From: Naegleria gruberi
Lineage: Eukaryota
DNA length: 64,000 nucleotides
Assembly: GCA_000004985.1 (NCBI GenBank)
Contig: GG738848.1
Strand: one strand, 5' to 3'
In this document: in pieces, positions 8,468-63,992 of the stretch
Numbering within the stretch: position 1 is the stretch's first letter
How the letters are laid out: every line of letters begins with the position of its first letter
The notes under the pieces: generated by a model
Told to the model about the DNA's origin: nothing
Seen by the model: the letters and a program-made list of their open reading frames with translations, nothing else
The model's database searches: none
Position numbers and translations under genes: made by a program

Positions 8468-11400
8468 TTATGCATTTTTAGCAAGATATTTTTCAATTTT
8501 TTCTTTAAACATATCATCAATGTAAGTATTTTGAATGTTAATTACTCGAATGGTATTATTCGATTTGGCAAAATCAATCAAAGCTAAAGCTGCACCAATT
8601 GAAATCAAATTTCCACTCAAATCAAGCTCAACAATTGTTGGATGAGGCTTGAGAATTGAGACTAGGGTTTCAATAGCTGGATTTCTGAACCCTTGTTTTG
8701 GCAAACTCAATTTGTGGAATTCAACATTTAAAAGAGTTTCCAAGAAAGGCTCTAATCCCTTATCACCTAAATAATTGTCTGATAAATTAACTTCTCCATC
8801 GGTGACGATAGTATTTGTGCCAAATTGAGCTCTAAGACGAGTGTTTGGTCTAAGAGATCTCTTTTCACAGTTTTCAACATACACATCCTCAAGAGTTCTT
8901 TCCTTAACAGGTTCTTCTTCCTTAGTTTCTTCCACCACATATTCAGCTTGAGCTTCTTCGACATGTGTTTCTTCTGGTTGTTTGTGTTTTTCTGGTGCGT
9001 CAACACTTGTTTCCTCATGAGGTTCTTGTTTTTCCTCTGGTTGTTGGTGTTTTTCTTGCTTGTCTTCTTGTGTTTCTTCTTTTTGAGATGATTTCACGTG
9101 TGTTTCTTCTGAGAGTTTGGTATCAACAAAAGTTTCTTGGTGTGTTTCTTCCTGTGTTTCTTCATGATGGTTTGTTTCATCTTGTGTTGTGTATGAATCT
9201 TCAATTGTTTTAGTTTCTTCAGCAAATCTCACATGATGTTCCTCTTCAGTGGAAGATTCTTCTGAAGGTTGTTCTTCAAAGGTTTCAAAATCTTCTTCAA
9301 ACGAGTCAAACTCATCTTCCTTTTGAAGTTCAGCTTGTTCTTCTTCATGAGTTGTCTCCTTTTGTTCTTTTTGGTTATCTGCTGTCTCAATCTCTTCTGC
9401 TTGTACCTCCTCTTGTTGGTCAACCTCAAAAGGCAAACTTTCTTCATGGAATGGTTCTTGAACTGTTTGTTCTCTTGGAGATTCTTCTCCAGGAAAATGA
9501 TCCATATCTGTTTCTTGTTGATGACTTGTATCTTCTTTTTCTTCAGCTTCTTCTGATTGTTCTTTCATTTCCTTTTCCACTTGATCAACAAACTCGTTTG
9601 ATTCTTGTTTAATTTCTGTTGATTCCTCATTTGCAAACTCTTCGAATTGTTCCTCGAATTGATCTTCGAAGTGATCTTCGAATTGTTCCTCATGTTGATC
9701 TTGAGTTTCCTCTTGAGTTGGTTCATGGTCTTCTTGAGTTTCTTCTTGAGTTTCCTCATATTTCTCTTCGAAAAATTGATCTGTTTCATTGAACTCTTCC
9801 GTATTTTGCTCGAATTCATCAGTAGTTTCATTGAATTGATTTTCCTCAAAGTTTTCTTCATGACTTTCAATATTTTCAAAATTCTCATGTGTTTGTTCTT
9901 GGTTTTCAAGGCTCTCGAAGGTTTCTTCTTCAGTATTTTCTAGGGCAACTTCGTTATTTTCTGAGAATTCTTGTTCAACATGTTGTTTGCTGTTTTCAAA
10001 TTCATCCTCTTTAGTGACTTCCTCAGAAGATACTTCCTTAATGGACTCTTCATGTGCTGTTTGGTGAACCTCAAAGTCCTCTTCTTCTGAAACATGTACC
10101 TCTTCTGATTGTTCTTCATGTGATTCTTCCAATTCCTCTTGCTTACTTTCCACATATTCAACTGTTTCTTCAACTTGTTTAATCTCGCTTTCCTGATTGC
10201 TTTCTTGATGTCCAATATGTTCTTCGGTGCATTTAATTTCATCATTTTGTTCTTTGTGACTGTGTTCCTCAATAATTTGCTCCTCTTGTTCCTCAACCTT
10301 TTTGACCTCATCAACACTTTCGTGCTTAACTTGATGATGATCTTCAACCCTATCATGGTGTTCTTCATTCTTGATATCTTCCCTATGTTCTTCAGTTGTC
10401 TCAATGTTTTCATGATTCTCTTCGGTATGTTTATGCTCTTCAACAGATGCTTCCTCAATAGCTTGAGGTTTCTCTGTATTGGCAACTTCAAAAGGTAAGC
10501 TTTCCTCTTGAGGTGGTTCTGTAACTGGTTCCATTTTTGGTTCTTCTTCTTTGACAATTTCTTGTGCATGGATTTCTACTATTTCTTCAGTTTGCTCTTC
10601 GGAGGATTTGTTAATAATCTCAGTCTCTTGATATGCAATATTTTCTTGCTTATCATCGTGATTATGCTTTTCCTTCTTCTCTTCATTATCATGCTTTTCC
10701 TTCTTCTCTTCGTGATCATGTTTCTCAACCTTTTCTTCTTTCTTATCGTCTTTCTTCTCTTCAGGATCATGTTTTTTCTTCTCTTCCTTTTCTTCCTCAA
10801 CTTTCTCATCGTGTTTAAGCTCGTTTTTCTTCTCTTCATGATCATGCTTTTCCTTTTTCTCTTCACGATCATGAATCTCAACCTTTTCTTCCTTAACTTC
10901 CTCATGGTTATGTTTATCCTTCTCTTCATGAACATGTTTCTCAACATTTTCTTCCTTAACTTCCTTCTCATGGTTATGTTTATCCTTCTTTTCTTCATGA
11001 TCATGTTTCTCAACATTTTCTTTCTTATCCTCGTCGTGATTATGTATATCCTTCTTTTCTTCATGATCATTCTTTTCCTTCTCTTCGTGGTCATGTTTCT
11101 CAACATTTTCTTCCTTAACTTCCTTAACCTCCTCGTGGTTATGCTTATCCTTCTTTTCTTCATTTTCTGATTTTTTCTCATGACCTATTTCAAATGGCAA
11201 ACCTTCTTCTTGGAGTGGTTCTTGAATCGTTTGTTCTCTTGGGGATTCCACGTCTGCAAAATGATCCATATCTTCAATGTCTCTATGGCTTTTAGTTTCA
11301 GTATCTTCTTGTTCATGTGTTTCATGATCATCTAAGGTTTGATATTGCTCATGGTCGTGGCTTTCAGGAAGGGTAGAGCTGGTTTCATCATGATCCTCCT

Positions 11401-14281
11401 CAGTACACTCTTGTTCAGAGTGCACATCATGGAGATGAATAATAGATGTGTTGATTTCTTCCACATATTCGTTATGTTGGTCCGAATGTACTTCTTGCTT
11501 GATTTCTTCAATATGTTCACCGTGTTCCTCAACCTTTGTTTCCTCATGATTATACTGTTCATCTTGATGATCTGATGGTTCATGATGTTGAGTGGAATCG
11601 TGAGATTCCTGCTCTTCCATTTTTTCTACATGCTCGTCTTGCGCGCCAAATTGTTCATCTGTTTGCTCTACAGTATTAAGGGTGGACTCTTCAACATTCA
11701 CTTCCTCTTCATGTTGTATTTCTTCAGATTTAGGTTCTTCTACTTGTTGGACAGGTTCCTCTTCAAGTGGTTCGGCTGGTTCTTCCTCAGATGGAGATTC
11801 TTCTTGAACTGTGTCCTCATGAGTTGCTTCTATGGCTTGCTCTTCCAGTGGTGTCTCTTCAATAGGTTGCGATTCTTCTTGAATCAGATCTTGTGATTCT
11901 TGAACCTCTTCCTCTGGAGAAACAGGTTCCTCTTGTTCAATTTCTTCTTGTTGAGCTTCTTCGAAAAGTTGCTCTTCTTGAGTCTCTCCGGCTGAATTTT
12001 CTTGGACTGGTTCTTCCTCTTGTGTTTCTTCTTGAACAGTAGATTCCTCAATTGGTGCTTCTTGAACTGTTGCTTCTGGTGTTTCCTCAATTGGTTGATC
12101 ATCTTCAGTTTCTTGAGGAATTTCTTCAGTCTGTTCTTGAGCAGGTTGCTCTTCTTGAACATATTCCTCAATGTCAGCAGGTTGTGCTTCTTGAGCAACT
12201 TCCTCTTGAGAAACAGGTTCTTCCTGTTGAAGTTCTTCTTGTTTATCCTCAACTTCATGAGCAGTTGCTTCTAATGGTTGTTCTTCGTGTACTGGTTCCT
12301 CATCTACAACTTGCTCTATTGCAGGTTCTTCTGGTTGAACTTCTTCTTGTAGTGGCTCTTCATGCTCCTGGGTAGTTTCTTCTTGAGTTGTTACTTCTTC
12401 TGGTTGAGTTTCTACAATCTCCTCAGCTGGTTGAACTTCTTCTTGTAGTGGCTCTTCAGGAGAAGCTTCTTCTGGTTGAGGTTCTTCAATTCTTTCCTCC
12501 TGGGTTTCTTCCACTGGTGGTTCTTCTACTGGCCCAACTTGCTCTGGTTCTTGGGTCTCATCAACAGCTGATAGCTCTTCTTGGTGAGTTTCCACTTCTT
12601 GATCTGTAGATTCGTCAACCTCCTGCACTGGAACAGTTTCTGGGGAGGGGTCTTCATTGAGTTTCTCTTCCTCAGCTTGTTCCCCAACAGGTTGAGCTTC
12701 TTGAACCTCTTCCTCTGGTTGAATTTCTTCTTGCTCTTCTTGAACATGATCTTGGGAAGATTCTTCCTGGGTTGGTTCTTCAACTGGTTGTGATTCTTCT
12801 TGAATCAGATCTTGTGATTCTTGTTGGACCTCTTCCTCTTTAGAAACAGGTTCCTCTTGTTGAAGTTCTTCTTGTTTATCCTCAACTTCATGAGCAGTTG
12901 CTTCTAATGGTTGTTCTTCGTGTACTGGTTCCTCATCAACAACTTGCTCTATTGCAGGTTCTTCTGGTTGAGCTTCTTCAGCAGGAGATTCTTCTTGAAC
13001 TGTCTCTTGAGTTGGCTCGACAGGAAGGTCTTCTTGTGTCTCCAATGGTGCATCTTCAACAGGTTGAGCTTCTTCCTGGGTTGGTTCTTCAACTGGTTGT
13101 GATTCTTCTTGAATCAGATCTTGGGAATATTCTTCCTGGGCTACTGGTTGTTCTTCTTGAGCTACTTCCTCTTGTTCAATTTCTTCTTGTTGAGCTTCTT
13201 CTTCGAAACGTTGCTCTTCTTGAGTCTCTTCAGCCGAATGTTCTTGGATTGCTTCTTCCTCTTGTGTTTCTTCTTGAATAGTAGATTCCTCAATTGGCTC
13301 TTCTTGAACTGTTTCTTCAGGTGATTCTTGGATTGGTTCTTCTTGAGGAACTTCTTCTGTGGATTGAAGTATTTCTTGAGTTTCTTCTGCTTGAGGTTGC
13401 TCTTCTTCAGAAGGAGAAGAATTCACTTCTTGAGGAATTTCTTCAGTCTGTTCTTGAGGAGAATTCACTTCTGTTGCCTCAACAGGTAGGGTTTCCTCTT
13501 CCACTTGTTCTTGAGCTGGAGATTCTTCTGTTTGAGGTTGCTCTTCCAACGGAGCTTCCTCTTCAATAGGCTTATCCTCTTCTTGTGAAGGTTCTTCCTG
13601 AAGTTGTTCGTCCTTAGCTTCAGGCTGGTTTTCCTCGTTCAATTGATCAACCTGGGTTTGTTCTGCTGTTTCCTCTGCAACAGTTTGATTTTCCTCCTGA
13701 AATTCATTTAATTCAGTTTCCCCAGTTGGTGCTGATTCTTGTGGCTTCTCTTCCTCTACTGGTTGATTTTCTTGAGGTGATTCTTCTTGGATTGGTTCTT
13801 CTTGAGGTACTTCTTCTGTTTCTTCGGCCGTAGAAGTATTCACTTCTGTTACTGCTTCGGAAACTTCGGCAGCATCTGAGACAGGTTGTTCCTCTGTTTT
13901 TTCGTCCACTTTGGAATCCTCTTCCTTTGTTGGTTCTGAAATTTCTTCAGTAGTATTATTCTCGATTTGTTCCTTTTTTTCCTCTACAGGATGTTCCTCA
14001 GTATTTTCATTATTTACAGAATTTGATGGTTCCTTATGCTCTTTTTCATCAGAATTGAGGTTAGAAGCCGATACATTTTTTGAACCTTGTTGTTTTTGCT
14101 GATACTCATCCTTGACTGTATTTGCTAGAGCATCTCTGAAAGAAGCATTATCGATAAGAACAGGCGTAAGCTCGACACTTGTAGGAAGACTTTCCACTAC
14201 AGGTTCTGTAATTTCATCTTCATTAAAGTCATCTGTTGTATTTCCGATTAGATTATTATCGTTATGAACCTCAGTGCTCAT
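8468..14281 (-). CDS. giant (1,937 aa) hyper-acidic low-complexity repeat protein with C-terminal RNI-like leucine-rich-repeat cap
   Basis: Continuous minus-strand ORF. The real ATG is at 14279-14281 (aaaaagaATGagc; MSTEVHNDNN...); the track start at 14308 is a GTG artefact. Most of the body is E/Q/P/V-rich (EEPVQEE.., PEEPAIEQVVDEEPVHEEQPLEATAHEVEDKQEELQQEEPVS occurs twice). There is a His/Lys/Glu-rich block (KHDHEEKKDKHNHEEVKE repeats). The C-terminal ~180 aa are LRR/RNI-like (VEFHKLSLPKQGFRNPAIETLVSILKPHPTIVELDLSGNLISIGAALALIDFAKSNNTIRVINIQNTYIDD). Overlapping ORFs on the opposite strand are low-complexity artefacts. Confidence 0.8.
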   Translation of the reverse strand: MSTEVHNDNNLIGNTTDDFNEDEITEPVVESLPTSVELTPVLIDNASFRDALANTVKDEYQQKQQGSKNVSASNLNSDEKEHKEPSNSVNNENTEEHPVEEKKEQIENNTTEEISEPTKEEDSKVDEKTEEQPVSDAAEVSEAVTEVNTSTAEETEEVPQEEPIQEESPQENQPVEEEKPQESAPTGETELNEFQEENQTVAEETAEQTQVDQLNEENQPEAKDEQLQEEPSQEEDKPIEEEAPLEEQPQTEESPAQEQVEEETLPVEATEVNSPQEQTEEIPQEVNSSPSEEEQPQAEETQEILQSTEEVPQEEPIQESPEETVQEEPIEESTIQEETQEEEAIQEHSAEETQEEQRFEEEAQQEEIEQEEVAQEEQPVAQEEYSQDLIQEESQPVEEPTQEEAQPVEDAPLETQEDLPVEPTQETVQEESPAEEAQPEEPAIEQVVDEEPVHEEQPLEATAHEVEDKQEELQQEEPVSKEEEVQQESQDLIQEESQPVEEPTQEESSQDHVQEEQEEIQPEEEVQEAQPVGEQAEEEKLNEDPSPETVPVQEVDESTDQEVETHQEELSAVDETQEPEQVGPVEEPPVEETQEERIEEPQPEEASPEEPLQEEVQPAEEIVETQPEEVTTQEETTQEHEEPLQEEVQPEEPAIEQVVDEEPVHEEQPLEATAHEVEDKQEELQQEEPVSQEEVAQEAQPADIEEYVQEEQPAQEQTEEIPQETEDDQPIEETPEATVQEAPIEESTVQEETQEEEPVQENSAGETQEEQLFEEAQQEEIEQEEPVSPEEEVQESQDLIQEESQPIEETPLEEQAIEATHEDTVQEESPSEEEPAEPLEEEPVQQVEEPKSEEIQHEEEVNVEESTLNTVEQTDEQFGAQDEHVEKMEEQESHDSTQHHEPSDHQDEQYNHEETKVEEHGEHIEEIKQEVHSDQHNEYVEEINTSIIHLHDVHSEQECTEEDHDETSSTLPESHDHEQYQTLDDHETHEQEDTETKSHRDIEDMDHFADVESPREQTIQEPLQEEGLPFEIGHEKKSENEEKKDKHNHEEVKEVKEENVEKHDHEEKEKNDHEEKKDIHNHDEDKKENVEKHDHEEKKDKHNHEKEVKEENVEKHVHEEKDKHNHEEVKEEKVEIHDREEKKEKHDHEEKKNELKHDEKVEEEKEEKKKHDPEEKKDDKKEEKVEKHDHEEKKEKHDNEEKKEKHNHDDKQENIAYQETEIINKSSEEQTEEIVEIHAQEIVKEEEPKMEPVTEPPQEESLPFEVANTEKPQAIEEASVEEHKHTEENHENIETTEEHREDIKNEEHHDRVEDHHQVKHESVDEVKKVEEQEEQIIEEHSHKEQNDEIKCTEEHIGHQESNQESEIKQVEETVEYVESKQEELEESHEEQSEEVHVSEEEDFEVHQTAHEESIKEVSSEEVTKEDEFENSKQHVEQEFSENNEVALENTEEETFESLENQEQTHENFENIESHEENFEENQFNETTDEFEQNTEEFNETDQFFEEKYEETQEETQEDHEPTQEETQDQHEEQFEDHFEDQFEEQFEEFANEESTEIKQESNEFVDQVEKEMKEQSEEAEEKEDTSHQQETDMDHFPGEESPREQTVQEPFHEESLPFEVDQQEEVQAEEIETADNQKEQKETTHEEEQAELQKEDEFDSFEEDFETFEEQPSEESSTEEEHHVRFAEETKTIEDSYTTQDETNHHEETQEETHQETFVDTKLSEETHVKSSQKEETQEDKQEKHQQPEEKQEPHEETSVDAPEKHKQPEETHVEEAQAEYVVEETKEEEPVKERTLEDVYVENCEKRSLRPNTRLRAQFGTNTIVTDGEVNLSDNYLGDKGLEPFLETLLNVEFHKLSLPKQGFRNPAIETLVSILKPHPTIVELDLSGNLISIGAALALIDFAKSNNTIRVINIQNTYIDDMFKEKIEKYLAKNA
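10620..11170 (-). repeat. coding minisatellite (~60-66 nt unit) encoding His-rich KHDHEEKK/KHNHEEVKE repeats inside the giant acidic gene
   Basis: Directly visible tandem near-copies such as ttcttcatgatcatgtttctcaacattttcttccttaacttcct(t)ctcatggttatgtttatccttc, repeated at least 7 times with point differences. The translation is a periodic ...EEKKDKHNHEEVKEEKVEKHDHEEK... Confidence 0.8.
11850..13150 (-). repeat. degenerate tandem duplications (~630-nt super-unit with ~130-nt near-identical cores) in the E/Q/P/V-rich part of the giant gene
   Basis: Near-identical blocks at ~12213-12350 and ~12845-12975 (...aacaggttcytcctgttgaagttcttcttgtttatcctcaacttcatgagcagttgcttctaatggttgttcttcgtgtactggttcctcat...). 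Further copies ggttgtgattcttcttgaatcagatcttg occur at ~11861, ~12771 and ~13081. Confidence 0.7.
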
Positions 14282-15002
14282 TCTTTTTGTTTTTTCAATG
14301 TTATACACCTAGTTTATGTAATAAATAATTGTTTAAGTCCTTATTATTTAAAAAAATTAATGACCAACAATGTGTTGAGGGTTGTTGGGATTTTTTTTGT
14401 TCTGTCTCTTGCCCTTAAAATGCTCTTGCTAAGACTACAATGCAGCCAATATGACACATGCACAACCCGCCAATAAAAACTACAAAAAATCCTCTTTTAC
14501 GCCTGTACCTAACCAAGTACAAGGAGGTTCTTTGCAAAGATTTAAACTCACACCCAACGCTTTGACGATAATTGATGTGTTTGTGCCTCTCTACGAGTTG
14601 GGCGGGAAAGTAATAAAAAGAAAATGGGCATATAAAATACCAATTCTGTAAATTCTGTATCGATCACAGAAGAGATCCATTAGTATGATCTTCATCATTC
14701 TCTATTGTGAATAATTCTAAAGTTCAACTGAGATTTTAAACCTTGGAAAGAAATCAACACCAAACAAGTGTCTTCTCATTGTTACCAACTTGGAGAGCTC
14801 ATTATATCCAAACAGAACTCACAACAAATTGTAGGAATTTGTCTCATTTTGATGATCAGTTTCGTCTGCCTAATTTTATTAGACAAGTAAGATTTGAATT
14901 TGTATTTAAAGATTTAACAGGTCTTAATCTGGAATATTTCTGAATTACCATTAGGTAGCTATTCCAATGAAAACAAGATAAAGTTATGTAGACTATTATT
15001 AT

Positions 15003-41650: not shown

Positions 41651-42985
41651 TCATTCGCGAAAGCTAATGCCATTCAGAAGCTTTAATTGTTTGAATTGTG
41701 AAAATACTTCATTCTGCACGAATGTAAATTGATTATGCCTAATTGATAGTGCCGTTAATTGATTCATATTAATCATATGCTTTACCCCCTGGTAAGACAA
41801 TTCATTATTGTTCACCTCGAGAGCTGTTAACTTTTCCAATTTAGTGAGATATAGTGATCCCTCATCTGTAATATAATTGTTTGAAATATCCAGTATTGTT
41901 AATTCGTTCAAATCACCCAAAGATTTCATTCCATCATCAGAAATTTGACAATCATTAACAAATAGTTCTGTCAATTGTTTAATCTCACTGATGGATTTAG
42001 CCCCATCATCACCGAATGCATTTGAAGAAATATTCAAATGTGTTAATTGACTCAATCCACTTAATTGCTTAACTCCTTTAGCACTGATACCATTCGATTT
42101 AATATCTAGCAATGTTAATTGTTTCATTTTGCTAAGCTCCTCACATTCATCGAGAATAGTACAATTATTTATGCTTAGGGAAACCAATTTGTTCATTTTG
42201 CTAATTGCATTAATTCCGTCAGGATTTATACGATCAATTGAGAGAGCTGTTAATTGGTCCAACTCGCTCAACAAGATCACCTCCTCATCACCAACCTTAT
42301 TATCACCTATATCAAGATAAGTTAGTTGTTTCATCTGACTTATGGCTTTGGCACCCTCTCCTCCAATCCTATTTGATGAAACATTTAGCCAAGTCAATGT
42401 TTTCATTTCACTAATTACTTTTGCTCCTTCTGCACCAATATAATTATATCTAATACTGAGAGATTCTAATTTTTCCAATTGGCTAATATAATTTGCTCCT
42501 TCCAACCCAATCCCATTAAAATCAACACAGAGATGAATCAAATGTTTCAATGTTCCAATTGACTTTAAACCATCCTCATTAGTAAAGTGACTTCCTAATG
42601 TGAGGTGTGTTAAATTTTTCATTAAAACAAAACCTTGAATTACCTTAGCTCCAAGAGTATTATAATTAAATGTTAGAAATTTAATTTGCACTCTTTCAAT
42701 ACTTTCCAAGAATTGACTTTTCATTAACGATTCTACTCTTTCACTATCAAACGGAACATTAAAATCCAAATAAAACGTAACTCGACTTTTGATAATATTT
42801 AAAAACTGTGTTGAAATTAATGTACAATTTTTCAAAATAAACCAATCATCCAGAAAACAAATAATTTCATAACAAATATCATCGGGAAATATTTCCTCTA
42901 TTATTTACCAAATAATACTAATATTTAACTACTATTTTCACTACTAATAATTACCCTGATGATGAATTTTTATAGCTTTACTCAT
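41651..42985 (-). CDS. F-box-like / leucine-rich-repeat (RNI-type) protein, 2 exons
   Basis: The track ORF (start 42835) begins at a TTG. The in-frame upstream sequence EIFPDDICYEIICFLDDWFILKNCTL (F-box-like) is closed by a stop. Splicing exon 1 (42985..42955, ATGAGTAAAGCTATAAAAATTCATCATCAGG, with a GTAATT donor) to exon 2 (42897..41651), after a 57-nt intron ending AATAATAG, keeps the frame and gives a proper ATG. The body is 12+ RNI-type LRRs (LTxLxISSNxIGxEGAKxIS). Confidence 0.65.
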
Positions 42986-43151: not shown

Positions 43152-44411
43152 ATGAAAAGACACACCACAGAGGAAGCATCATCTCCATCAAAATCCAGCA
43201 AAACTGTGCCAACAGCTGCACCTTTTTCATCGGAGAGTTTGGCACAAATTTTGTGTTTTCTACATGTTGAAGATGTTGTGAGTGCTTCGATGGTTTCTAA
43301 TCAGTGGAATGCAACTTGTATTGATTATCAGGAAACTATCTGGAAGGCTGTCTGTTACAATTCATTGAATGATCTGGAAAAGTATCCATTCATGAAGAAT
43401 GTTAAAGGAGGAACATTTGATATTCAAGCTTATGAGGGAATTTATTCTTCATGGAAGGAAACTTTTGTTAAAATGTAGGTTTAAAGTTTAGCTTTCACAT
43501 AATTACTATTATCATGGTGAAGGTTTTATGGACAACTCAAGGAATTTACATCCCAATATCAAATGTATGTGAATGAAGTGTTTGCTGATGTAGAGGATAA
43601 GGAGAATATATTAGAGACCATGAAGAAGAGATCCACTCTTGCAATTCCCTACACTTTTAAAGGTCAACAACAAGAGCAAAATGAAGTATTTGGAGACGAG
43701 GGGACTGAAGAAAAGAAAGATGATGAGGAAAAAGATGAAGATGAAGAAGGAGATTGCAAAGACAATACCCCTATTGGATCAAGTAAGATTGGTGGACTTC
43801 CTGACCTACCAAAAGGAATGAAATGGCCAAATGTAATCGATGACGAAGAACAATTGCTCAAGTTTGTGTGTCAAATCGATTTGAGAGATCTCAAAAACTA
43901 TCACTCAGTTAAGGGAATATTACCAAGATGTGGCTGGTTGTTTTGCTTTATTGATTGGGAGAATTTGGAAAGTGATGACTACAAAGAACCATATTCTTTC
44001 TATTGGAATGGACCTATTGATATGCTTGAAAGGGTGAAACCAGAAGATGGATTGGAATATGAAGAGAGTAAGGTAGCTCAAATACAGTTCAAAAAGGAAG
44101 TAGTTCAACCACTCTCACCAGAAAATGCTCTTCGTATGGATGTTAACGAAAAATACTCAAGCAGTAAAGCTGATTTGGGAACATCAGTAATGGGATATCC
44201 TGAAGCAGTTCAATCAGAAGATGAAATGATTTGTGATGATCGTTATTTCATTCTCCAATATCAAAATATGTCACTGAACAACAATCTGGTTGATACTGCT
44301 GACTCTGTATTTTATTGGATGCTCCCTTTAGAAAGTCATGAAAAAATCAGAAATATCAAAGATGATAAGAAACAAATCAGAGTTCCACTATTCACAACCT
44401 TCCAATGTTGA
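43152..44411 (+). CDS. F-box-like protein fused to a DUF1963 (YwqG-like) domain, 2 exons
   Basis: Exon 1 is 43152..43474 (ATG after an A7 run; LAQILCFLHVEDVVSASMVSNQWNATCID is F-box-like). The 48-nt intron runs from GTAGGT at 43475 to GTGAAG ending at 43522. Exon 2 is 43523..44411. The C-terminal half matches DUF1963 (GGLPDLPKGMKWPNV...LLKFVCQIDLRDL...LPRCGWLFCFIDWENLE). Confidence 0.7.
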
Positions 44412-50734: not shown

Positions 50735-52036
50735 ATGGAAAGAGATGATGCATTTCATGATGATGTTATTTATGAAATTTTATCATTTCATGATGATTTT
50801 AAATTTCTTGTCATGAATTGTTCGTTGGTTTCTAAACAATGGTACCATGTTGTGTTAACAATGTGCAAGCAAATGACATTGAAATGCCATTCCGATGTAA
50901 ATGGTCACTTTATACAAAATATTGCAAATCTTGTGATTGAAAAACAATCCAATGTTTACAAGAATTTATTATTGATGAAATCATTGACAAAACTGTGTAT
51001 TTCATATGGCAATAAGAATAAGAAATTCAAAGTTGATGATGAAACACTTCAATACATTGGTGAATTGAAACAATTAACAAGTCTTCATATTCATGGAATT
51101 GGTATTGATAATGTTTGGGACATAGCTGATTTGAAACAATTAACAGAACTTGACATCTCTGATAATAAGATTAATTCTGAAGGAGCTAGAGTTATCAGCG
51201 AATCATTTAAACATTTAACAAAGCTTGATATATCCAACAATACTATTGATGTAGGAACCAAATATATAAGCCAATTGAAACAATTGACCTATCTGGATGT
51301 TTCTAATAATGAAATTGAAGAAGAGGATGTTAAATATATTGGAAATATGAACGGATTAACAAGTCTATCTATTCAGTACAATCATATTGGTAATATTGGT
51401 GCTCAATACATTAGTGGACTGAAACAGATAACTACTCTCTCTATTTATAGCGGTGATATTGGTGATGAAGGAGCTAAATATATCAGTGAAATGAAACAAT
51501 TAACAAATCTGAATATTGGTTTCAATAATATCAATATAAGAGGAGCTATACACATTTCTAAATTGAAACAATTGACAGAACTTTCTATTTCTGCGAATAA
51601 CTTTGGTTCTGGAGGACTTAAATACATTACTCAATTAAAACAATTAACAAAACTTTATTGCTGTGACAGTGAAATTGATAGTGAGGGAGTTAAATATATA
51701 AGTGAAATGAAACAATTAACAGATGTTGACCTTAGTTATAATAACATTAACAGTGAAGGAGTTAAATATCTTAACAAATTGAAAAAATTAACTAAACTTT
51801 ATATAGGAGGCAATGATTTAGGTAATAAAGGAGCTATGTACATAAGCAGACTGAACCAATTAACACATCTAGATATTTGTAGAAATAATGTTAGTGATGA
51901 AGGATTCAAGTCAATTAGTAAAATGAAACAATTGAGCAGTCTGTTTATTTCTGAAAATACTATTTCTGGTGAAGGAGTTGAATACATACGTAAAATGACA
52001 CAAGCAGCAAGTATTTGTGTGGACTTTGGAGATTAG
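50735..52036 (+). CDS. F-box-like / leucine-rich-repeat (RNI-type) protein
   Basis: ATG at 50735 after an A7 run. The N-terminus is F-box-like (DDVIYEILSFHDDFKFLVMNCSLVSKQWYHVV). About 13 consecutive RNI-type LRRs of 24-25 aa follow (LKQLT.L.IS.N.I..EGAKYIS). 433 aa. Confidence 0.75.
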   Translation: MERDDAFHDDVIYEILSFHDDFKFLVMNCSLVSKQWYHVVLTMCKQMTLKCHSDVNGHFIQNIANLVIEKQSNVYKNLLLMKSLTKLCISYGNKNKKFKVDDETLQYIGELKQLTSLHIHGIGIDNVWDIADLKQLTELDISDNKINSEGARVISESFKHLTKLDISNNTIDVGTKYISQLKQLTYLDVSNNEIEEEDVKYIGNMNGLTSLSIQYNHIGNIGAQYISGLKQITTLSIYSGDIGDEGAKYISEMKQLTNLNIGFNNINIRGAIHISKLKQLTELSISANNFGSGGLKYITQLKQLTKLYCCDSEIDSEGVKYISEMKQLTDVDLSYNNINSEGVKYLNKLKKLTKLYIGGNDLGNKGAMYISRLNQLTHLDICRNNVSDEGFKSISKMKQLSSLFISENTISGEGVEYIRKMTQAASICVDFGD

Positions 52037-52239: not shown

Positions 52240-52312
52240 GCTGGCGTAGCTCAGTCGGTAGAGCGTTGGTCTAATAAGCCATTGGTCGCCGGTTCGATCC
52301 CGTCCGTCAGCA
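52240..52312 (+). tRNA. tRNA-Ile, anticodon AAT (read as IAU)
   Basis: The 73-nt cloverleaf folds by hand. The acceptor stem GCTGGCG/CGTCAGC has 7 bp with one G-U. The D-arm is GCTC-AGTCGGTA-GAGC (A-box TAGCTCAGTCGG). The anticodon stem is TTGGT/GCCAT with loop CTAATAA (anticodon AAT). The T-arm is GCCGG-TTCGATC-CCGTC (B-box GGTTCGATCC). The discriminator is A and no CCA is encoded, as expected in eukaryotes. It is close to human tRNA-Ile-AAT. There is one mismatch in each of the anticodon and T stems. Confidence 0.8.
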
Positions 52313-57199: not shown

Positions 57200-60100
57200 T
57201 TAATAAGTTGGAGTAAAATCTTGCATTTCTGGCATGACACTTTCACTGATGGCAGCTGCATTGACACTCTTTTTTCTTTGGATTTCATTCTTTTTTGTAA
57301 AACGAAGGATCAATATCACAATAATTATGATTATAACAATTATGGTGAATACAATTACAAAAACAATTGGTATAACAATTGCAGCAACAATATTTGGTCT
57401 AAAAGCACGAGGAGGAACATCTTTTGAGTATGTACAAAATGCTTCATTCACCTGAACTAGAGTTCCATTTGTTGATGTCAACACCAAAGCATAAGGTTGA
57501 CTAGTTGTAACTGAAGCCAATTGATTCATATAAACTGCAACACTAACATATGAAGCTGCACCCAAAGAATTAACAATAACCTTTTCCAAATTATTTACAG
57601 TGTCCACTGCTCCTAAATCATTACCTCCATACACTACAAGATTTTTGAAACTTGTTCCATCAGTGGTGAATGTATTTACAATCAAATCCAAATTATTAAT
57701 GAGTGGAACAAAAGAAGAAATATCACTTGGATAATCGTACCAAGCTAAAGTTGCTTTGATCCAACTTGCACTTTCAACTTTGTAACATAATTTGAATGAT
57801 TGAGAGGAGGCAGTGAACGAATTTTCAAAGAATGTCAAGCCAACATCATTTCCAGTTTCAGTTTTCAGCAATGATCCCAAGGAAACAATACCATGACCTT
57901 CAACAGGATTTGGTTGAAAATAGGCATTTAGCTCAACTCTATCAGTTTCGTCTCCATTCAATGAAACTGTTCCTTTAGATGGAACAGCTGATTGGACCAA
58001 GAGAGCTTTAATCAAAGGTCCTGATGGGTTGGAAACTCCTCTATTCTTCTGTAAATATTGTCTTATCAAAGCTATTATTAGTGTTGAAACTTAAGTTGAA
58101 ATTGAAATAACTTACCAGCAGCTCCAGCCTTTAAAGGAATATTAAATATAATATTAAATAATTAAATACTTACCATTAGAGGTGTACTCATTGAAGTTCC
58201 TCTCTATTTTCAATGAGTTTATGTGAAAAAAGTTTAAAAAAACACAACTTACCTTTGAAAGAAGAGCAGCATCGTTTCCTTCTTTTGGACGACCAGTTCC
58301 ACATTGATTGGTAGTAATTATACCATCAGAGTGAGCACTCACAATATTTTCTCCAACTGCAACTAAATCTGGTTTAATTCTTCCTCCATCTTCATTTACC
58401 TTAATTAACTTGTAAAAATCAAAGAAAACATACCAGCAGGTCCTCTACTCGAAAATGAAGCGATATTCATCTCATTGTAAGCTTTAGTATCTTTAAACTG
58501 ATTTTCAACATAACTTGGGCAACAGTATGATCTCACATTGGTAGATAATGATAAACAACATTCTTCAGGTCCAGCAAAATTTAGAGATGCTTCCTTAATC
58601 TTTGTATAGTAATCTTCATAATACAGTGAGGTAAGAATTCCACTATTTGAAGAACGAGATGATCCAACACTAATGATATTCTTTGAGTTTGATTGCTCTG
58701 TGAGAGTTCCTTGTTTGGCGAGTGCTCCATCATTTCCTTTTAAGTGTTTAGAATAAGAAATTCCAATTTGGAAACAACTTACCTGCAGCAAAGAGAATAA
58801 CTGCATCCTGTTTATCCCACAAATACTTGTCAAGGTTATAAGCTGAAGAAGTGTAAAAGTTTGTAATGGAACAACATGTTTCAGAACCAAACAATCTGTT
58901 ACACTGGGCATCAGTAATCGAATCACCAGAATTGAATGAATCAAATGCATTGACCACTCTACAATTCTTACAATCATAAGAACAAGTAACATAGACAGAA
59001 GCAGAGGTTCCGTAACTGTTGGAGAAAATTCTTGCGCCGTAATTATATCCTTGTTTAAAGAGAACTGTTAAATCATTAGACATGAACATATTGTCATTGT
59101 TTGAATCTTTCATATCAACAAAGAATAGTTTTGAAGCTGGAGCCATTCCATGATATTGATTGACAGTGTCAGAAAAATCTGTATTTTCCATTGAGCCAGA
59201 GATGGAACCTGCTACGTGAGTACCATGTCCAGAAACATCATCCTTAAAATCTGTAGTAATCTTTTGATTATTAAATTGGAATGTAATTGTATTATATGAC
59301 ACAATCTTTCTATGATTTTCATCAAAGACATTGACATTGGAAGAATCTCTAAAGAAGCAATGATCGTGATCAATACCAGTATCACTCAATCCAATTATCT
59401 GTCCCTCTCCATAAATTCCAAGATCATAGAATGGACTAGCTCTTGCCACAGAGTTGGCATTAACTGATTGTGAGATGGAAACTCCATTCTTATTGAAAAA
59501 GCCAAGTTGATGGACCTTTTCAACATAGTGTACGTTTGGGTGACTCTTCAAAGTTTGTCCAACTCTTGCAGAAACTAGAGGTGAAAATTGAATTTCGAAA
59601 TGACTATCTGAAATTACTTCAATTGGGAAGAAATCCCTTCCTTTGATAAGTTGACTTCCCAATAATTCATTAAGATTATTGGCTATTTGTTGAGCTGATT
59701 CATTTTGCTGTTCAGTTGTGAGAGAATCCAACGAATGGGTAAGAGAAATTGAAGCCCTCAAATATCTTGGAGTGGTCAGAGATCTCTTTGAGCTATTCAA
59801 ATATTGGATTGAAATGTGTTCAATTTCTGCAAAATCTAAAATTGACTTGAATCTTTCTTCATAGTTTCCAATAAACTCTAAATCATCCTTAAAAGCCAGC
59901 AATTGACTCAACTTTCCAACAACTTTAAACACACCATGATTTAAAAAATTTCCTACTCTTGTCAAAGGATGATTCCTCTCCCTTTCACTCTTAATCTTTA
60001 TAATATATTCAGCAATTTGTTCTTCTTGTTTAATTCTTCTTTTCAAATTACCATGAAGAATGTTATTCTCTGAATTAAGTATATAATTATTACCCTCGCC

Positions 60101-60319
60101 TTCTATTCTATTATTACTATTCATCATGGCCTTAAAACTAATAAATTCTTCACTTATTGATGGTGCTGCCAAAGCCCTCTCGGTCATCATTGTTGTTATG
60201 ATAATCAGCAGAAAACAACTTAGCACCAAATTCTTCATCATCATTCTTGTTGCACTAATTCCTTCTGAATTGTTGCAACTCTTCCTCAGCTTTGAACACT
60301 TAGAAGAATTGTCTCTCAT
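57200..60319 (-). CDS. subtilisin-like serine protease (S8 family) with signal peptide and C-terminal transmembrane anchor, 6 exons
   Basis: ATG at 60317-60319. Exons: 60319..58783, 58736..58434, 58389..58253, 58203..58174, 58128..58116, 58071..57200. The introns are 44-49 nt, all GTAAGT/GTATGT...AG with consistent phases. The catalytic triad is reconstructed as GLSDTGID (Asp), SGHGTHVAGSI (His) and GTSMSTPLMAGAAG (Ser, across exons 4-5); the oxyanion-hole Asn region is also present. The C-terminal hydrophobic stretch is IVAAIVIPIVFVIVFTIIVIIIIIVILIL. The 30- and 13-nt exons are inferred from motif continuity. Confidence 0.8.
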
Positions 60320-60611: not shown

Positions 60612-63600
60612 TTAGAAAAGGGTATAACTGTCTGGGAATCTCATCTTCTTATTATTTTTCAAGAGAGTGGACCAATGGTTGAATCCCATCTCTCCAGTGA
60701 GCTTGGATATGAGATCATACAATTTGGATTCATTTTCATTTTGTTCTCCCAATGATTTAATCAACTTTTGAAGGGCAACTGTTTGATATTTAAAGTATAA
60801 ATCATATTGGACATCTGTGAAGAGGAATTTCTCTGTTGGATCAACAAATTGTCTGAGGGTCTTCATTGTTTGCTTGATTAGAGTATCTCTGTCCGAAATT
60901 TCTGAGCCAGTTGTATCATCTAACAACAAATCGAGTTTGGTTTGCAATGAATTAATGAGTGCATCCTTCTTCTTATCCATTTCTTTACATTTGAGTTGGT
61001 ATGCTTGTTGTTCGAGTTCAGATTCTTCATCTTCGTTCTTTGTCTTATTCTTTGGTTGACTACCATAGTGAATAATCAAATCAGAAATGTTAGCGACTTC
61101 AGTGACACTATCAACAAGTTGAGTAATTTGATTGACGAGATCCTTCTTTTCAGTGCTGGTCTTGAGTTGTTCCTTGAGAATATCAAGCTTCAATAGAAGA
61201 AGTCCCAAATACTTTGGATTGTTCTCTAAAAGTGTGTTGACAAATGGTAAAGCTTCAGCTTTGAGCTTTTTAAGATAGGTTACTTGTTGTTCAATAATGT
61301 AGTCTTGGAACTTTTGTTCTGCCGTTCTTTCATCAGCCTTATTTTCCTTTTCAGGAGTTGATTTTTCACTTGCCAAGAAAGAAGGTGGAACCACAAAGGT
61401 AAGTGGAACAGTGGCAACATCAACACCTTGATATTGGAATTTACCAGTCAATCTATCGCCAGCCTTAACCTCCTTTGGTAAATCCTTTTCAACTCCAGAA
61501 TATCCCAAGGCATAGGAATTGCTTCTACCATAACTCAACTTGAATTTTTCATCTTGTTTATCAACATCAGTAAGAGCACCATTGATGTGCTTGAATAATT
61601 TGAGTGAAATTGGTTTGGCAAGTACGTGAGTAATGACGAGAGGATAATTCTTGAGCTTTTGTAGGGTTGCAATATTGTCATGTCTGAATTGTGCTCTGAC
61701 AACATAGTCACCCTTCTTCAACTTGAATTTTTCAGGATGGTAATCAGAAACCTTGACTAATTTCTTATTCTTATTGAAGATCATAAGCATTCTTGATTCA
61801 ATATTGCATTCATAGAGTAATTTGGAGAGAACTGGTAGTGAGGTGATAATTTCATGATCTGATGCCATCTTGAGATTATAGTCAAGTATCATTTCATAGC
61901 TACACTTTTCAGTATCAAAATAGGTATTTCTTGGATTGTTTTGAATTTGAATGAGTTTTGAATCTTCACTATTGGTTGGAGAGAGTGTTTCTTTCCAAGA
62001 ATCAAGTTTTGCAGAAATATTCATTTCCATATTTCTTAATGATGAAGTGAGTTGTATCTTTCTAGCAACTTCACTTCCATCAAAGAATATCTCATCATTG
62101 GAAATATTGATAGAGTCGATTCCATAGAATTCTACATCAACTGTAATTTTACATTGTCCAGGAGAGGACCAGAATTGACCAAATGTCAATTCTAGAGTTC
62201 TATTTGGAACAGTCTTAATATTGTGAGTGGAAACATCTGACTGAGAAACTTGAATGAATTTTCTGGTGTCATATTTAGAATAGGCTTCCCTGTCCAAAAG
62301 TTGTGTAGCATGGAAGACGAGCATTTTTTGTGTGTCCATTTCATCAGCTCTCAATGATAACTTGCAGTATTGAATAGAGCATGAAGGGGTGCTAATATAT
62401 TGTCTATAGAGTTCTCCTGATTTCATTTGATAGGTGAAAGTCTTTCTATATTCTACTTCGGTATCAGATTTGACTAGCTTGTAAGGTTTCATTACAGTAA
62501 TTGGAACAGAGAAAACTGGACCGAATTCCATATTATCACAATCAAGAGCATCAATTCTGGCAAAATAAACATTATTTTCGTCTAAAATTTCAGTATTAAT
62601 TTGAACAACGAATGAGAATGTTCCTGGTATGTGTAAGAATTCTGGTGCTTTGATGAATTTTGGAGTCTCATTTGCTTTGTGATCTGTGACTGTATTTGCA
62701 TTATTGCTAGAAAAAATAGGTACAAGTTTGAATCTCTTTTCAAACTCGATCTTGCTCATATTCTTTGTTTTCTCATTGTAGACAAGATCAATACTGACTG
62801 TATAGAATTGGGTTGAGTGAGTCTCCTCAAATTCTCTTAAATAAATGCCTCTTGCATTATTTCTTTGTGGAATTGAAATTACATATCTATAATCGTCAGT
62901 GTCTGGATTGAATGGCTTTTGCTTTTCAATAAATTTAAAGGCGTCCAAAACTTGAACTAATCCTGAACCAATAGATAATGGATGATGGCTATGCTCATCC
63001 ACATTCTTTTCATCATTTTCATGATTATTTCTTGCAGTATTTTCCAAAACTTTTTTGATGTAATAAGGATTCCATTTTCTTCCCTCAGCTATTAAGGCAC
63101 TATAAAGCAATGCAAGACAACCGGAACATTGAGGTGAAGACATGGAAGTTCCATTACATCGATTTACAGATTGTAGAGTATAGTTTGGTACACTGGTAAT
63201 AGCAGCACCCAAGCTAGAAATAGTTGGGCACAATTGACCATCCTCTGTTGGACCTCTGGAAGACCATGTAAATTGGGAATCTGGAACTGTCTCAGAAAGT
63301 CCATACTGAGCTTTTATCATAGACTGGGTTACATAAGCTCCAACACCTATACATGAGTCAGATAAGGAAGCAGGGGCACCACAAGTTGTATAGTTTGGTC
63401 CAGCGTTACCAGCTGAGGTGACAAATGTAACATTGTGATTGTAAACCAATTCTTCCAACTTTTCTCTAAAGATACCAGTGTTAGCAAGAGAGCTTGGCTC
63501 GCCGTATGACATATTAATAATGGAACACTTATTTTCATAGCAGGAAATTAAGCCTCTATTGAGAGCTGTTCCAGTTTCCATAGAACCCAATCTATTATCA

Positions 63601-63992
63601 CCAATTTTGCATGAAACAATTTGGCAACCAGGTGCTGCACCGTTCAATTCTGGTTTATCTGGGAAGTGAGCGCCAACAATTCCTGCAACGTGTGAGCCGT
63701 GAGATCCTGAGGTAGTAACAATAGAAAGCAAGTTACCATTATCATAAATCTTGAAAGAATAGTTCAATAAATCAAGTTCTGTGAAGGTGGAATATTCGTA
63801 ATTCAGGCTATAGTCACTCATCAACTTTTCATTACTCAAATCGACAACTTGTTCATCAAAACTAGAGGTTTCAAAAATATTCTTCTCAGCATCATAACTA
63901 TCATGAACAACCACAGCTCTATACACGTTGGCCTTCTCGTCTAAAAATACAATACAATCCAAAAGTGGACCAGAGTCTTCATAATTCTTCAT
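60612..63992 (-). CDS. tripeptidyl-peptidase II (TPP2, S8 family), 3' part; N-terminal exon(s) with the catalytic Asp lie beyond the window end
   Basis: The 1,126-codon ORF ends at 60612. It aligns to TPP2 from the segment after the Asp box (PLLDCIVFLDEKANVYRAVVVHDSYD ~ human PVYDCLVWHDGEVWRACID). It continues through GSHGSHVAGIVGAHFPDKPELNGAAPGCQIVSCKIGD (His), SAGNAGP, and LQSVNRCNGTSMSSPQCSGCLALL (Ser), then the long TPP2 C-terminal region. The track start at 63992 is not an ATG. The 5' end is truncated by the window. Confidence 0.85.
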   Translation of the reverse strand: MKNYEDSGPLLDCIVFLDEKANVYRAVVVHDSYDAEKNIFETSSFDEQVVDLSNEKLMSDYSLNYEYSTFTELDLLNYSFKIYDNGNLLSIVTTSGSHGSHVAGIVGAHFPDKPELNGAAPGCQIVSCKIGDNRLGSMETGTALNRGLISCYENKCSIINMSYGEPSSLANTGIFREKLEELVYNHNVTFVTSAGNAGPNYTTCGAPASLSDSCIGVGAYVTQSMIKAQYGLSETVPDSQFTWSSRGPTEDGQLCPTISSLGAAITSVPNYTLQSVNRCNGTSMSSPQCSGCLALLYSALIAEGRKWNPYYIKKVLENTARNNHENDEKNVDEHSHHPLSIGSGLVQVLDAFKFIEKQKPFNPDTDDYRYVISIPQRNNARGIYLREFEETHSTQFYTVSIDLVYNEKTKNMSKIEFEKRFKLVPIFSSNNANTVTDHKANETPKFIKAPEFLHIPGTFSFVVQINTEILDENNVYFARIDALDCDNMEFGPVFSVPITVMKPYKLVKSDTEVEYRKTFTYQMKSGELYRQYISTPSCSIQYCKLSLRADEMDTQKMLVFHATQLLDREAYSKYDTRKFIQVSQSDVSTHNIKTVPNRTLELTFGQFWSSPGQCKITVDVEFYGIDSINISNDEIFFDGSEVARKIQLTSSLRNMEMNISAKLDSWKETLSPTNSEDSKLIQIQNNPRNTYFDTEKCSYEMILDYNLKMASDHEIITSLPVLSKLLYECNIESRMLMIFNKNKKLVKVSDYHPEKFKLKKGDYVVRAQFRHDNIATLQKLKNYPLVITHVLAKPISLKLFKHINGALTDVDKQDEKFKLSYGRSNSYALGYSGVEKDLPKEVKAGDRLTGKFQYQGVDVATVPLTFVVPPSFLASEKSTPEKENKADERTAEQKFQDYIIEQQVTYLKKLKAEALPFVNTLLENNPKYLGLLLLKLDILKEQLKTSTEKKDLVNQITQLVDSVTEVANISDLIIHYGSQPKNKTKNEDEESELEQQAYQLKCKEMDKKKDALINSLQTKLDLLLDDTTGSEISDRDTLIKQTMKTLRQFVDPTEKFLFTDVQYDLYFKYQTVALQKLIKSLGEQNENESKLYDLISKLTGEMGFNHWSTLLKNNKKMRFPDSYTLF

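Follow-up and report, generated by a model that had tools for sequence, protein, structure and literature searches.

An F-box joined to a bacterial-type YwqG domain in one spliced gene of Naegleria gruberi

We analysed a stretch of 64,000 nucleotides from contig GG738848.1 of the Naegleria gruberi assembly GCA_000004985.1 (hereafter the window). At positions 43,152 to 44,411 of the window lies a spliced gene encoding a protein of 403 residues, in which an F-box module at the N-terminus is followed by a domain of the YwqG family (Pfam DUF1963), a member of the TYPP superfamily. N. gruberi belongs to the Heterolobosea within Discoba, and the amoebozoan placement given in the original prediction for this DNA was wrong. 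The gene itself is already public: its spliced product is 100% identical over 403 residues to the N. gruberi protein XP_002681946.1 / EFC49202.1 (NAEGRDRAFT_62658), for which UniProt (D2V1Q5) carries the label "F-box domain-containing protein". Thus, both the gene model and the F-box annotation are on record. In the literature searched we found no paper that mentions the locus tag NAEGRDRAFT_62658, or "TYPP domain" together with "F-box", and no description of an architecture combining an F-box with a YwqG/TYPP domain.

The gene spans two open reading frames (ORFs) on the plus strand, ORF1 at 43152-43478 (108 aa) and ORF2 at 43563-44411 (282 aa), which lie in different frames. Removal of the 48-nt intron at 43475-43522 (GTAGGTTTAAAG...GGTGAAG) brings them into one frame and yields the 403-aa product. 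This phase-2 intron interrupts the codon AT/G and has GTAGGT at its 5′ end and GAAG at its 3′ end. Other GT...AG pairs keep the frame as well; a consensus-like 5′ splice site is found only at this junction. An in-frame TAA stands two codons 5′ of the start ATG at 43152. Both the ORF coordinates and the 48-nt GT-AG intron of the original prediction were thereby found again, together with the in-frame join.

The window by itself cannot settle whether the two halves are fused, because ORF2 has an ATG of its own (43563), and it is comparative data that settle the question. An exhaustive HMMER search covering 1.84 billion representatives supplied relatives, and the contigs carrying them were then retrieved. 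The search found N-terminal-only and C-terminal-only fragments as separate entries, split by prokaryote-style gene callers. The contigs fall into several types. One metagenome contig (L001, from ERZ929261) is 98-99% identical to the window and has an identical intron. Three Naegleria-like relatives, likewise metagenomic, were obtained besides: a locus (L002) whose protein has about 72% identity to the N. gruberi protein, a paralogue type (L003) that shares its source metagenome with L001, and a third paralogue type represented by two contigs (L005 and L006). The L005/L006 type is a shortened variant of 304 aa, in which the F-box and the intron (1991-2031 in L005, 2380-2420 in L006) are kept, along with the first half of its TYPP domain.

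In all these relatives the intron sits at the same codon and in the same phase, with a length of 38 nt in L002, 44 nt in L003 and 41 nt in L005/L006 compared to 48 nt in N. gruberi. The differences in length are not divisible by 3, yet on either side the coding sequence stays conserved as far as the splice site. For L002, L003 and L005/L006 alike, the N-terminal ORF stops at GTA[AG]GT after the motif W-K-E/N-x-F/Y-x-x-[ML], and the frame resumes after [ACT]AG. For example, the sequence flanking the junction in N. gruberi, MFYGQLKEFTSQYQ, has MFYGQLKQFTSQYQ as its counterpart in L002. Coding conservation reaches back to the 3′ splice site, which lies 40 nt before the first ATG in ORF2. Furthermore, from the upstream stop to the GGxP motif L002 and L003 lack any ATG, which rules out that the domain exon is a gene of its own at those loci. 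In an AlphaFold2 (AF2) model, one unbroken helix (residues 91-127) spans the junction residue 108.

Compared with L002, the ratio of nonsynonymous to synonymous substitution rates (dN/dS) is 0.20 overall, 0.27 in exon 1 and 0.11 in the DUF1963 part, with a dS of about 1.25. By this measure both halves of the protein are under purifying selection. Taken on this comparative evidence, the fusion of the F-box and DUF1963 parts is real and under selection, and the original prediction of one spliced eukaryotic gene agrees both with the intron position and phase kept in relatives and with the identical public 403-aa model.

Retention of the intron has the same consequence at each of these loci. At 43473-43478, and at the equivalent positions of L002, L003 and L006, the unspliced sequence reads ...ATG TAG (or TAA), an immediate stop. 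Since the intron is in phase 2 and begins with GTA[AG]GT, a retained intron terminates translation at once and leaves a 108-aa product with the F-box only. Such a product would be, judging from the sequence, a generic outcome of the splice-site consensus.

The N-terminal module was assigned by family profiles. An N-terminal profile built from six sequences (A4) gave 25 matches at E<=10 among PDB sequences, 22 of which are F-box proteins. FBXO3 is the best match (2.9e-5), followed by FBXW11 (3.5e-4), and the list includes GID2, FBH1, beta-TrCP, cyclin F, Cdc4, TIR1 and FBXL5. The hydrophobic core pattern of the F-box (L..IL.FL...D......VS..W) is found in the N. gruberi protein as ESLAQILCFL..EDVVSASMVSNQW. 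Several homologues score above the Pfam F-box cut-offs, with 35.0 bits for P0008, 26.5 for L006 and 35.9 for a protein of the amoeba Stenamoeba described below. The F-box-like N-terminus named in the original prediction is thus borne out by a PF00646 match, by the PDB profile matches and by the stronger scores of homologues.

The C-terminal part matches Pfam DUF1963 (PF09234) over residues 195-344 with E=5e-15 and 56.9 bits, far above the cut-off of 23. All of the 148 nearest representatives are DUF1963 proteins, and a family profile built from them matches YwqG of Bacillus subtilis (1PV5) over its full length at E=1.2e-30. The domain has the two-repeat all-beta fold of 1PV5, and most 10-residue blocks between residues 191 and 300 of the AF2 model average 85-97 in predicted local distance difference test score (pLDDT). 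Pfam, the family neighbours and the published description of the family (Burroughs and Aravind 2014, PMC4275035) all agree with the DUF1963/YwqG assignment, and with the mainly bacterial character, that the original prediction had given to this domain.

The motifs that define the TYPP superfamily, GGxP and a highly conserved glutamine (PMC4275035), are present. In the GGxP motif, G199 is invariant, and at least 90% of the 148 family representatives keep G198 and P201. The second repeat has its GYP at residues 332-334, and the C-terminal ...FQC is kept as well. A near-invariant glutamine of repeat 2 is described at the base of the TYPP binding pocket (PMC4275035), and Q353, at the counterpart of the LLLQ.D motif, would be a candidate for it. 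Acidic stretches are found at or near the position of the acidic loop in all homologues. The coordinates of the features are listed in Table 1.

Table 1. Features of the F-box/YwqG gene, in window coordinates
Feature	Position	Strand	Basis
Exon 1: codons 1-107 and two bases of codon 108 (N-terminal tail, F-box, start of linker helix)	43152..43474	+	ATG after in-frame TAA; MKR... N-terminus kept in homologues
F-box, residues 25-68, FSSESLAQILCFLHVEDVVSASMVSNQWNATCIDYQETIWKAVC	43224..43355	+	Pfam PF00646; family profile vs PDB
Spliceosomal intron, 48 nt, phase 2	43475..43522	+	Position and phase kept in L002, L003, L005/L006; identical in strain contig L001
Exon 2: last base of codon 108 to stop TGA (44409-44411)	43523..44411	+	Coding conservation begins at 3′ splice site
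YwqG-family TYPP / DUF1963 domain, about residues 130-403, including N-terminal helix and first strand	43587..44408	+	
Acidic low-complexity loop, residues 156-188, from first strand to GGxP	43665..43763	+	Sequence reading; pLDDT <50 at 156-166
GGxP motif of TYPP repeat 1 (GGLP, residues 198-201)	43791..43802	+	Family alignment
Glutamine Q225 (FVCQIDL), TYPP signature Q	43872..43874	+	Invariant in alignment A3; 122/122 non-eukaryotic sequences
Repeat-2 G[YF]P...Q motif (MGYPEAVQ, residues 331-338)	44190..44213	+	Aligns with lGYpd.iQ of the profile and 1PV5
Repeat-2 glutamine Q353 (FILQYQ), counterpart of the LLLQ.D motif	44256..44258	+	Q at this column in 93/122 other members

Other domain assignments were considered. 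The Pfam scan gave no PDCD2_C or MYND match even at E<=10, and therefore the domain belongs to the YwqG family and is no orthologue of the PDCD2/Tsr4 chaperones; membership of the PDCD2 family is excluded by this absence and by the YwqG type of all nearest relatives. Neither a SUKH (SMI1_KNR4) nor an ApaG/DUF525 domain was found in the Pfam scan, and a scan of the protein against NCBIfam returned zero matches. A single-sequence phmmer search against the PDB had one match, LPDLPKG in a streptococcal surface protein, which we rejected as due to chance.

Among the 148 nearest representatives, an F-box accompanies the domain only in the N. gruberi cluster and in one further protein, P0015. This is a complete ORF on a Trinity transcript (EP01102_P013876) of Stenamoeba stenopodia (Amoebozoa, Discosea), and it combines WWE (E=6e-13), F-box (E=6e-9) and DUF1963 domains on a single transcript. 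WWE domains are typical of proteins of ubiquitin and ADP-ribose signalling. P0015 and the N. gruberi protein align by BLASTP in one collinear segment (residues 28-372 of the N. gruberi protein with 153-505 of P0015, E=5e-16, 23% identity), which covers the F-box, the linker with its W-K-x-x-F motif and most of the TYPP domain. Following the central strand, both proteins carry a DW(E) signature, with a W that is outside the top three residues of its column in the 122 other members. A 53-residue acidic/basic insert follows directly after the GGLPDLPKG motif of P0015. With the acidic insert deleted, the Stenamoeba domain matches the N. gruberi protein best among the sequences sampled.

Further searches returned no additional member. 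Scanning metagenomes with patterns from the domain yielded 80 DUF1963 loci, with an F-box/linker module upstream in 0/80, and a scan with N-terminal patterns gave 102 pattern matches, of which 0 were confirmed. Word-index protein searches returned 2-7 matches each and no named eukaryotic homologue beyond N. gruberi and Stenamoeba; because the single-protein query missed P0003, P0004 and P0015, all recovered by the exhaustive HMMER search, a negative result there does not mean absence. P0015 has the 12-mer SKIGGLPDLPKG in common with the N. gruberi query, yet it was missed by the word-index search, and relatives were still missed when the acidic low-complexity stretches were removed from the queries.

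A home-made neighbour-joining (NJ) tree places the five eukaryotic F-box-linked domains in one clade, with a bootstrap of 29/200 and a numerical warning at saturated distances. A phylogeny of the domain had been put forward in the original prediction as a check on horizontal transfer; the eukaryotic domains do group in this tree, and the weak bootstrap does not resolve a transfer. A single origin of the F-box and YwqG/TYPP fusion appears plausible from the sequences, not established. The Stenamoeba record comes from a transcriptome only.

The genome around the locus is eukaryotic and poor in introns, with about 33% GC, and the gene, with a GC content of 0.34, has the same composition as its flanks. 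Other genes of the window encode a PI3-kinase, Spb1, a Sac1-like protein, a tripeptidyl peptidase II (TPPII)-like protein and leucine-rich repeat (LRR) proteins; Skp1 of N. gruberi is encoded outside the window. Two ORFs rich in LRR_6/LRR_8 flank the locus, at 41651-42835 (-) and 50735-52036 (+). The first of these is divergent to the F-box/YwqG gene and lies 316 bp upstream of its ATG. A tRNA-Ile gene with the anticodon AAT was found at 52240-52312 (+).

At its positions 1694-1885, corresponding to about 44747 of the window, the strain contig L001 carries 192 bp, a multiple of 3, that the window lacks there and does not hold elsewhere either. An in-frame indel between strains, affecting the next gene downstream of the F-box/YwqG gene, seems to be the explanation.

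Elsewhere in the window, the ORF at 8468-14308 (-, 1946 aa) has no Pfam match and lies in a region with a GC content of 0.40-0.43 and an extreme AT skew of about -0.45. Tandem repeats with periods of 27, 66 and 48 nt occur within it at 10641-11163, and the ORF probably encodes a large protein of repetitive or low-complexity sequence. The TPPII-like ORF (Peptidase_S8, TPPII, Ig-like and GBD) adjoins a second ORF, the pair occupying 58748-60319 (-) and 60612-63992 (-), and the C-terminal part of this neighbour matches the first half of Peptidase_S8. No consensus-type intron linking the two was found. The pair may represent two subtilase genes in tandem, or else exons belonging to one longer gene model.

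What might such a protein do? The layout, with an N-terminal F-box (25-68) followed by a C-terminal putative binding domain (about 130-403), is that of F-box receptors. From sequence and by analogy we think it reasonably likely that the protein is a substrate receptor of an SCF ubiquitin ligase, capturing a disordered segment of a client protein through its YwqG-type TYPP domain. The F-box would dock on Skp1 within the SCF (Skp1-Cul1-Rbx1) complex, the two-repeat beta domain would take up an extended or disordered client peptide in its GGxP and Gln-lined pocket or cleft, and the captured client would then be ubiquitinated.

Several lines of evidence lead to this proposal. The position C-terminal to the F-box is the one used for substrate recognition in SCF receptors (Zhang, Iyer and Aravind 2011, PMC3113570). 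Binding has a precedent in the superfamily: TYPP domains are predicted to bind extended peptides through the conserved-Gln pocket and cleft, in a protein-protein interaction or chaperone role (PMC4275035), the TYPP domain of PDCD2 is required experimentally for binding of the ribosomal protein uS5, and yeast Tsr4 recognises the unstructured N-terminal region of uS5 (PMC7736825). Bacterial YwqG proteins are found fused to Ank, LRR, HEAT and TPR repeats. Finally, the Stenamoeba homologue carries a WWE domain.

A number of observations weigh against the receptor proposal. In the Pfam scan the N. gruberi protein reaches only 21.1 bits for PF00646, a marginal score at a cut-off of 20.5, and 21.7 bits for F-box-like PF12937 (residues 27-68), under its cut-off of 24.3. 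All Naegleria-like copies have (P)F-S where an F-box canonically begins with Leu-Pro; Stenamoeba has LPED. The F-box of L003 holds an acidic insertion and has no Pfam F-box match. An AF2 model of the N-terminal part from 5 sequences has a pLDDT of 43, and its helices (27-36, 42-47 and 51-55) are consistent with an F-box, in a model too poor for a fold search. On the C-terminal side, the PF09234 match covers profile positions 1-161 of 216, and the proteins of L005/L006 are without the middle of the domain, WLFFFMDC joining directly to ...LFLLQY. The Stenamoeba record is from a transcriptome only and may be a contamination from another eukaryote. Furthermore, we know of no YwqG-family protein with a known ligand. 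On balance, the sequence evidence for the F-box is marginal in the N. gruberi protein alone and clear at the level of the family. The SCF ubiquitin-ligase context proposed in the original prediction gains contextual support from the WWE domain of Stenamoeba; membership of the complex would be a matter of prediction, with Leu-Pro replaced in the Naegleria copies.

The alternative that survives best accepts the fusion and removes it from SCF. The F-box-like part would be degenerate or another kind of interaction module, and the protein would act as a chaperone or adaptor of the TYPP type, similar to PDCD2 and Tsr4, without ubiquitination. F-box proteins outside SCF exist, the characterised TYPP proteins are chaperones and none of them is a ligase subunit, and the marginal score, the lost Leu-Pro motif and the interrupted L003 F-box all fit such a protein. 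Nonetheless, purifying selection acts on the N-terminal module (dN/dS 0.27), its family profile matches almost exclusively F-box proteins, and in Stenamoeba the F-box is strong and canonical (35.9 bits, LPED...) and accompanied by WWE. We therefore consider this alternative unlikely, while giving it real weight.

An enzymatic role of the TYPP domain is much harder to defend. The domain could, for example, modify peptides in its Gln pocket, the F-box targeting this activity to a ligase or regulating its turnover. Burroughs and Aravind raise such a "more radical interpretation" (PMC4275035), and the pocket residues GGxP, Q225 and Q353 are strictly retained. The same authors, however, see little enzymological precedent (PMC4275035), PDCD2 and Tsr4 work by binding (PMC7736825), and the C-terminal slot of F-box proteins serves substrate recognition (PMC3113570), all of which makes an enzyme very doubtful.

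Two separate genes, a small F-box protein and a DUF1963 protein starting from the ATG at 43563 with the GT...AG pair a coincidence, would account for the own start codon of ORF2 in the window and for the split made by prokaryote-style gene callers. This explanation is largely refuted and highly improbable, as the coding sequence is conserved beyond that ATG back to the 3′ splice site, the domain is preceded by no ATG in L002 or L003, the intron keeps its position and phase while varying in length by non-multiples of 3, one transcript with one ORF encodes the Stenamoeba homologue, and the public model is the spliced 403 aa.

The receptor proposal leaves the source of the TYPP domain to be considered. 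The named neighbours of the domain are proteins of Anaerolineae and Phascolarctobacterium, or metagenome proteins called "YwqG", and the best bacterial matches are partial alignments with 35-44% identity over 100-160 residues. The YwqG family is overwhelmingly bacterial (PMC4275035), and transfers of YwqG into yeasts are documented, with homologues in Entamoeba (Rolland et al. 2009, PMC2715888). The domain is most probably of bacterial origin, which is the simplest reading of these distributions because the family is centred in bacteria, in agreement with both studies. A transfer was not recent, because the gene has host-like GC, a conserved spliceosomal intron, diverged paralogues, low identity to bacterial proteins and a homologue in another supergroup. 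If there was a transfer, it is plausible that it was ancient; NJ trees do not resolve its donor or date. The horizontal transfer suggested in the original prediction is therefore plausible from the bacterial-centred family, with a recent event excluded. A recent bacterial insertion or an assembly contaminant could appeal to the predominantly bacterial family (PMC4275035) and to the recent yeast transfers and Entamoeba homologues on record (PMC2715888), but it is refuted as a recent event, and has next to no probability left, by the flank-like GC, the eukaryotic neighbours (Sac1-like, LRR, PI3K, Spb1), the conserved intron with several diverged paralogues or orthologues, bacterial matches of just 35-44% identity, and an independent metagenome assembly that holds the same locus at 98-99% identity.

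The yeast and Entamoeba genes differ from the N. gruberi gene in several respects. They are standalone eukaryotic YwqG genes acquired by horizontal gene transfer from an evident bacterial source, in Lachancea/Kluyveromyces thermotolerans with homologues in Entamoeba (PMC2715888). They are unfused and encode proteins of about 260 aa, the yeast ones 38-48% identical to Bacillus YwqG and the Entamoeba ones about 30-35% identical to yeast. These acquisitions are separate from the F-box-fused clade.

Compared to the bacterial members of the family, the N. gruberi protein is a distant relative with additions. It shares with B. subtilis YwqG (1PV5) the YwqG family / Pfam DUF1963 and the TYPP superfamily (PMC4275035), at 16% identity. 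Bacterial YwqG proteins are standalone or fused to repeats, whereas the N. gruberi protein adds the F-box, the acidic loop before GGxP and the DW(E) signature. PDCD2, PDCD2L and Tsr4, from the same superfamily, provide a functional template in their binding of a client protein (uS5). They form another family without an F-box, and the N. gruberi protein in turn is without the MYND insert and the CxxC pairs. Nothing ties it to ribosome biogenesis, and its likeness to PDCD2/Tsr4 is by analogy only.

The closest analogue is the combination of F-box and SUKH in FBXO3, so that the F-box with YwqG/TYPP is no new kind of system. FBXO3/SKIP16 and the fungal proteins with F-box and SUKH-4 follow the same logic of placing a binding domain centred in bacteria behind an N-terminal F-box (PMC3113570). 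The bacterial-derived SUKH domain was joined to an N-terminal F-box twice, as a substrate-recognition part of E3 ligases (PMC3113570). The FBXO3 type combines SUKH with ApaG/DUF525 and occurs in animals and plants, whereas the N. gruberi type uses TYPP/YwqG and was found only in Naegleria-like organisms and Stenamoeba. Within this type, Stenamoeba P0015 differs from the N. gruberi protein by its extra N-terminal WWE, its canonical LP F-box and its 53-residue insert.

A broader reading can be offered only tentatively, and we hold it to be more doubtful than not. The architecture would have arisen once and be common to Heterolobosea and Amoebozoa, either as an ancient eukaryotic invention that was mostly lost or as a fused gene passed between free-living amoebae. 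It would then represent an undescribed class of SCF receptors reading disordered, possibly basic, peptides in the way PDCD2/Tsr4 reads uS5.

YwqG/DUF1963 is a large and mostly bacterial family with a solved structure, whose PDCD2/Tsr4 cousins hold a disordered segment of a ribosomal protein. A YwqG domain in the substrate slot of an F-box protein argues for reading the superfamily as peptide-binding modules and against an enzymatic reading. This case is made stronger because purifying selection acts on both halves, the architecture recurs in Naegleria-like genomes and the amoebozoan transcript adds a WWE domain. After SUKH in FBXO3, it would be a further case of eukaryotes wiring a bacterial protein-binding domain into the ubiquitin system. 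Should the class of receptors with a single origin prove true, it would provide a first experimentally tractable handle on the binding target of bacterial YwqG.

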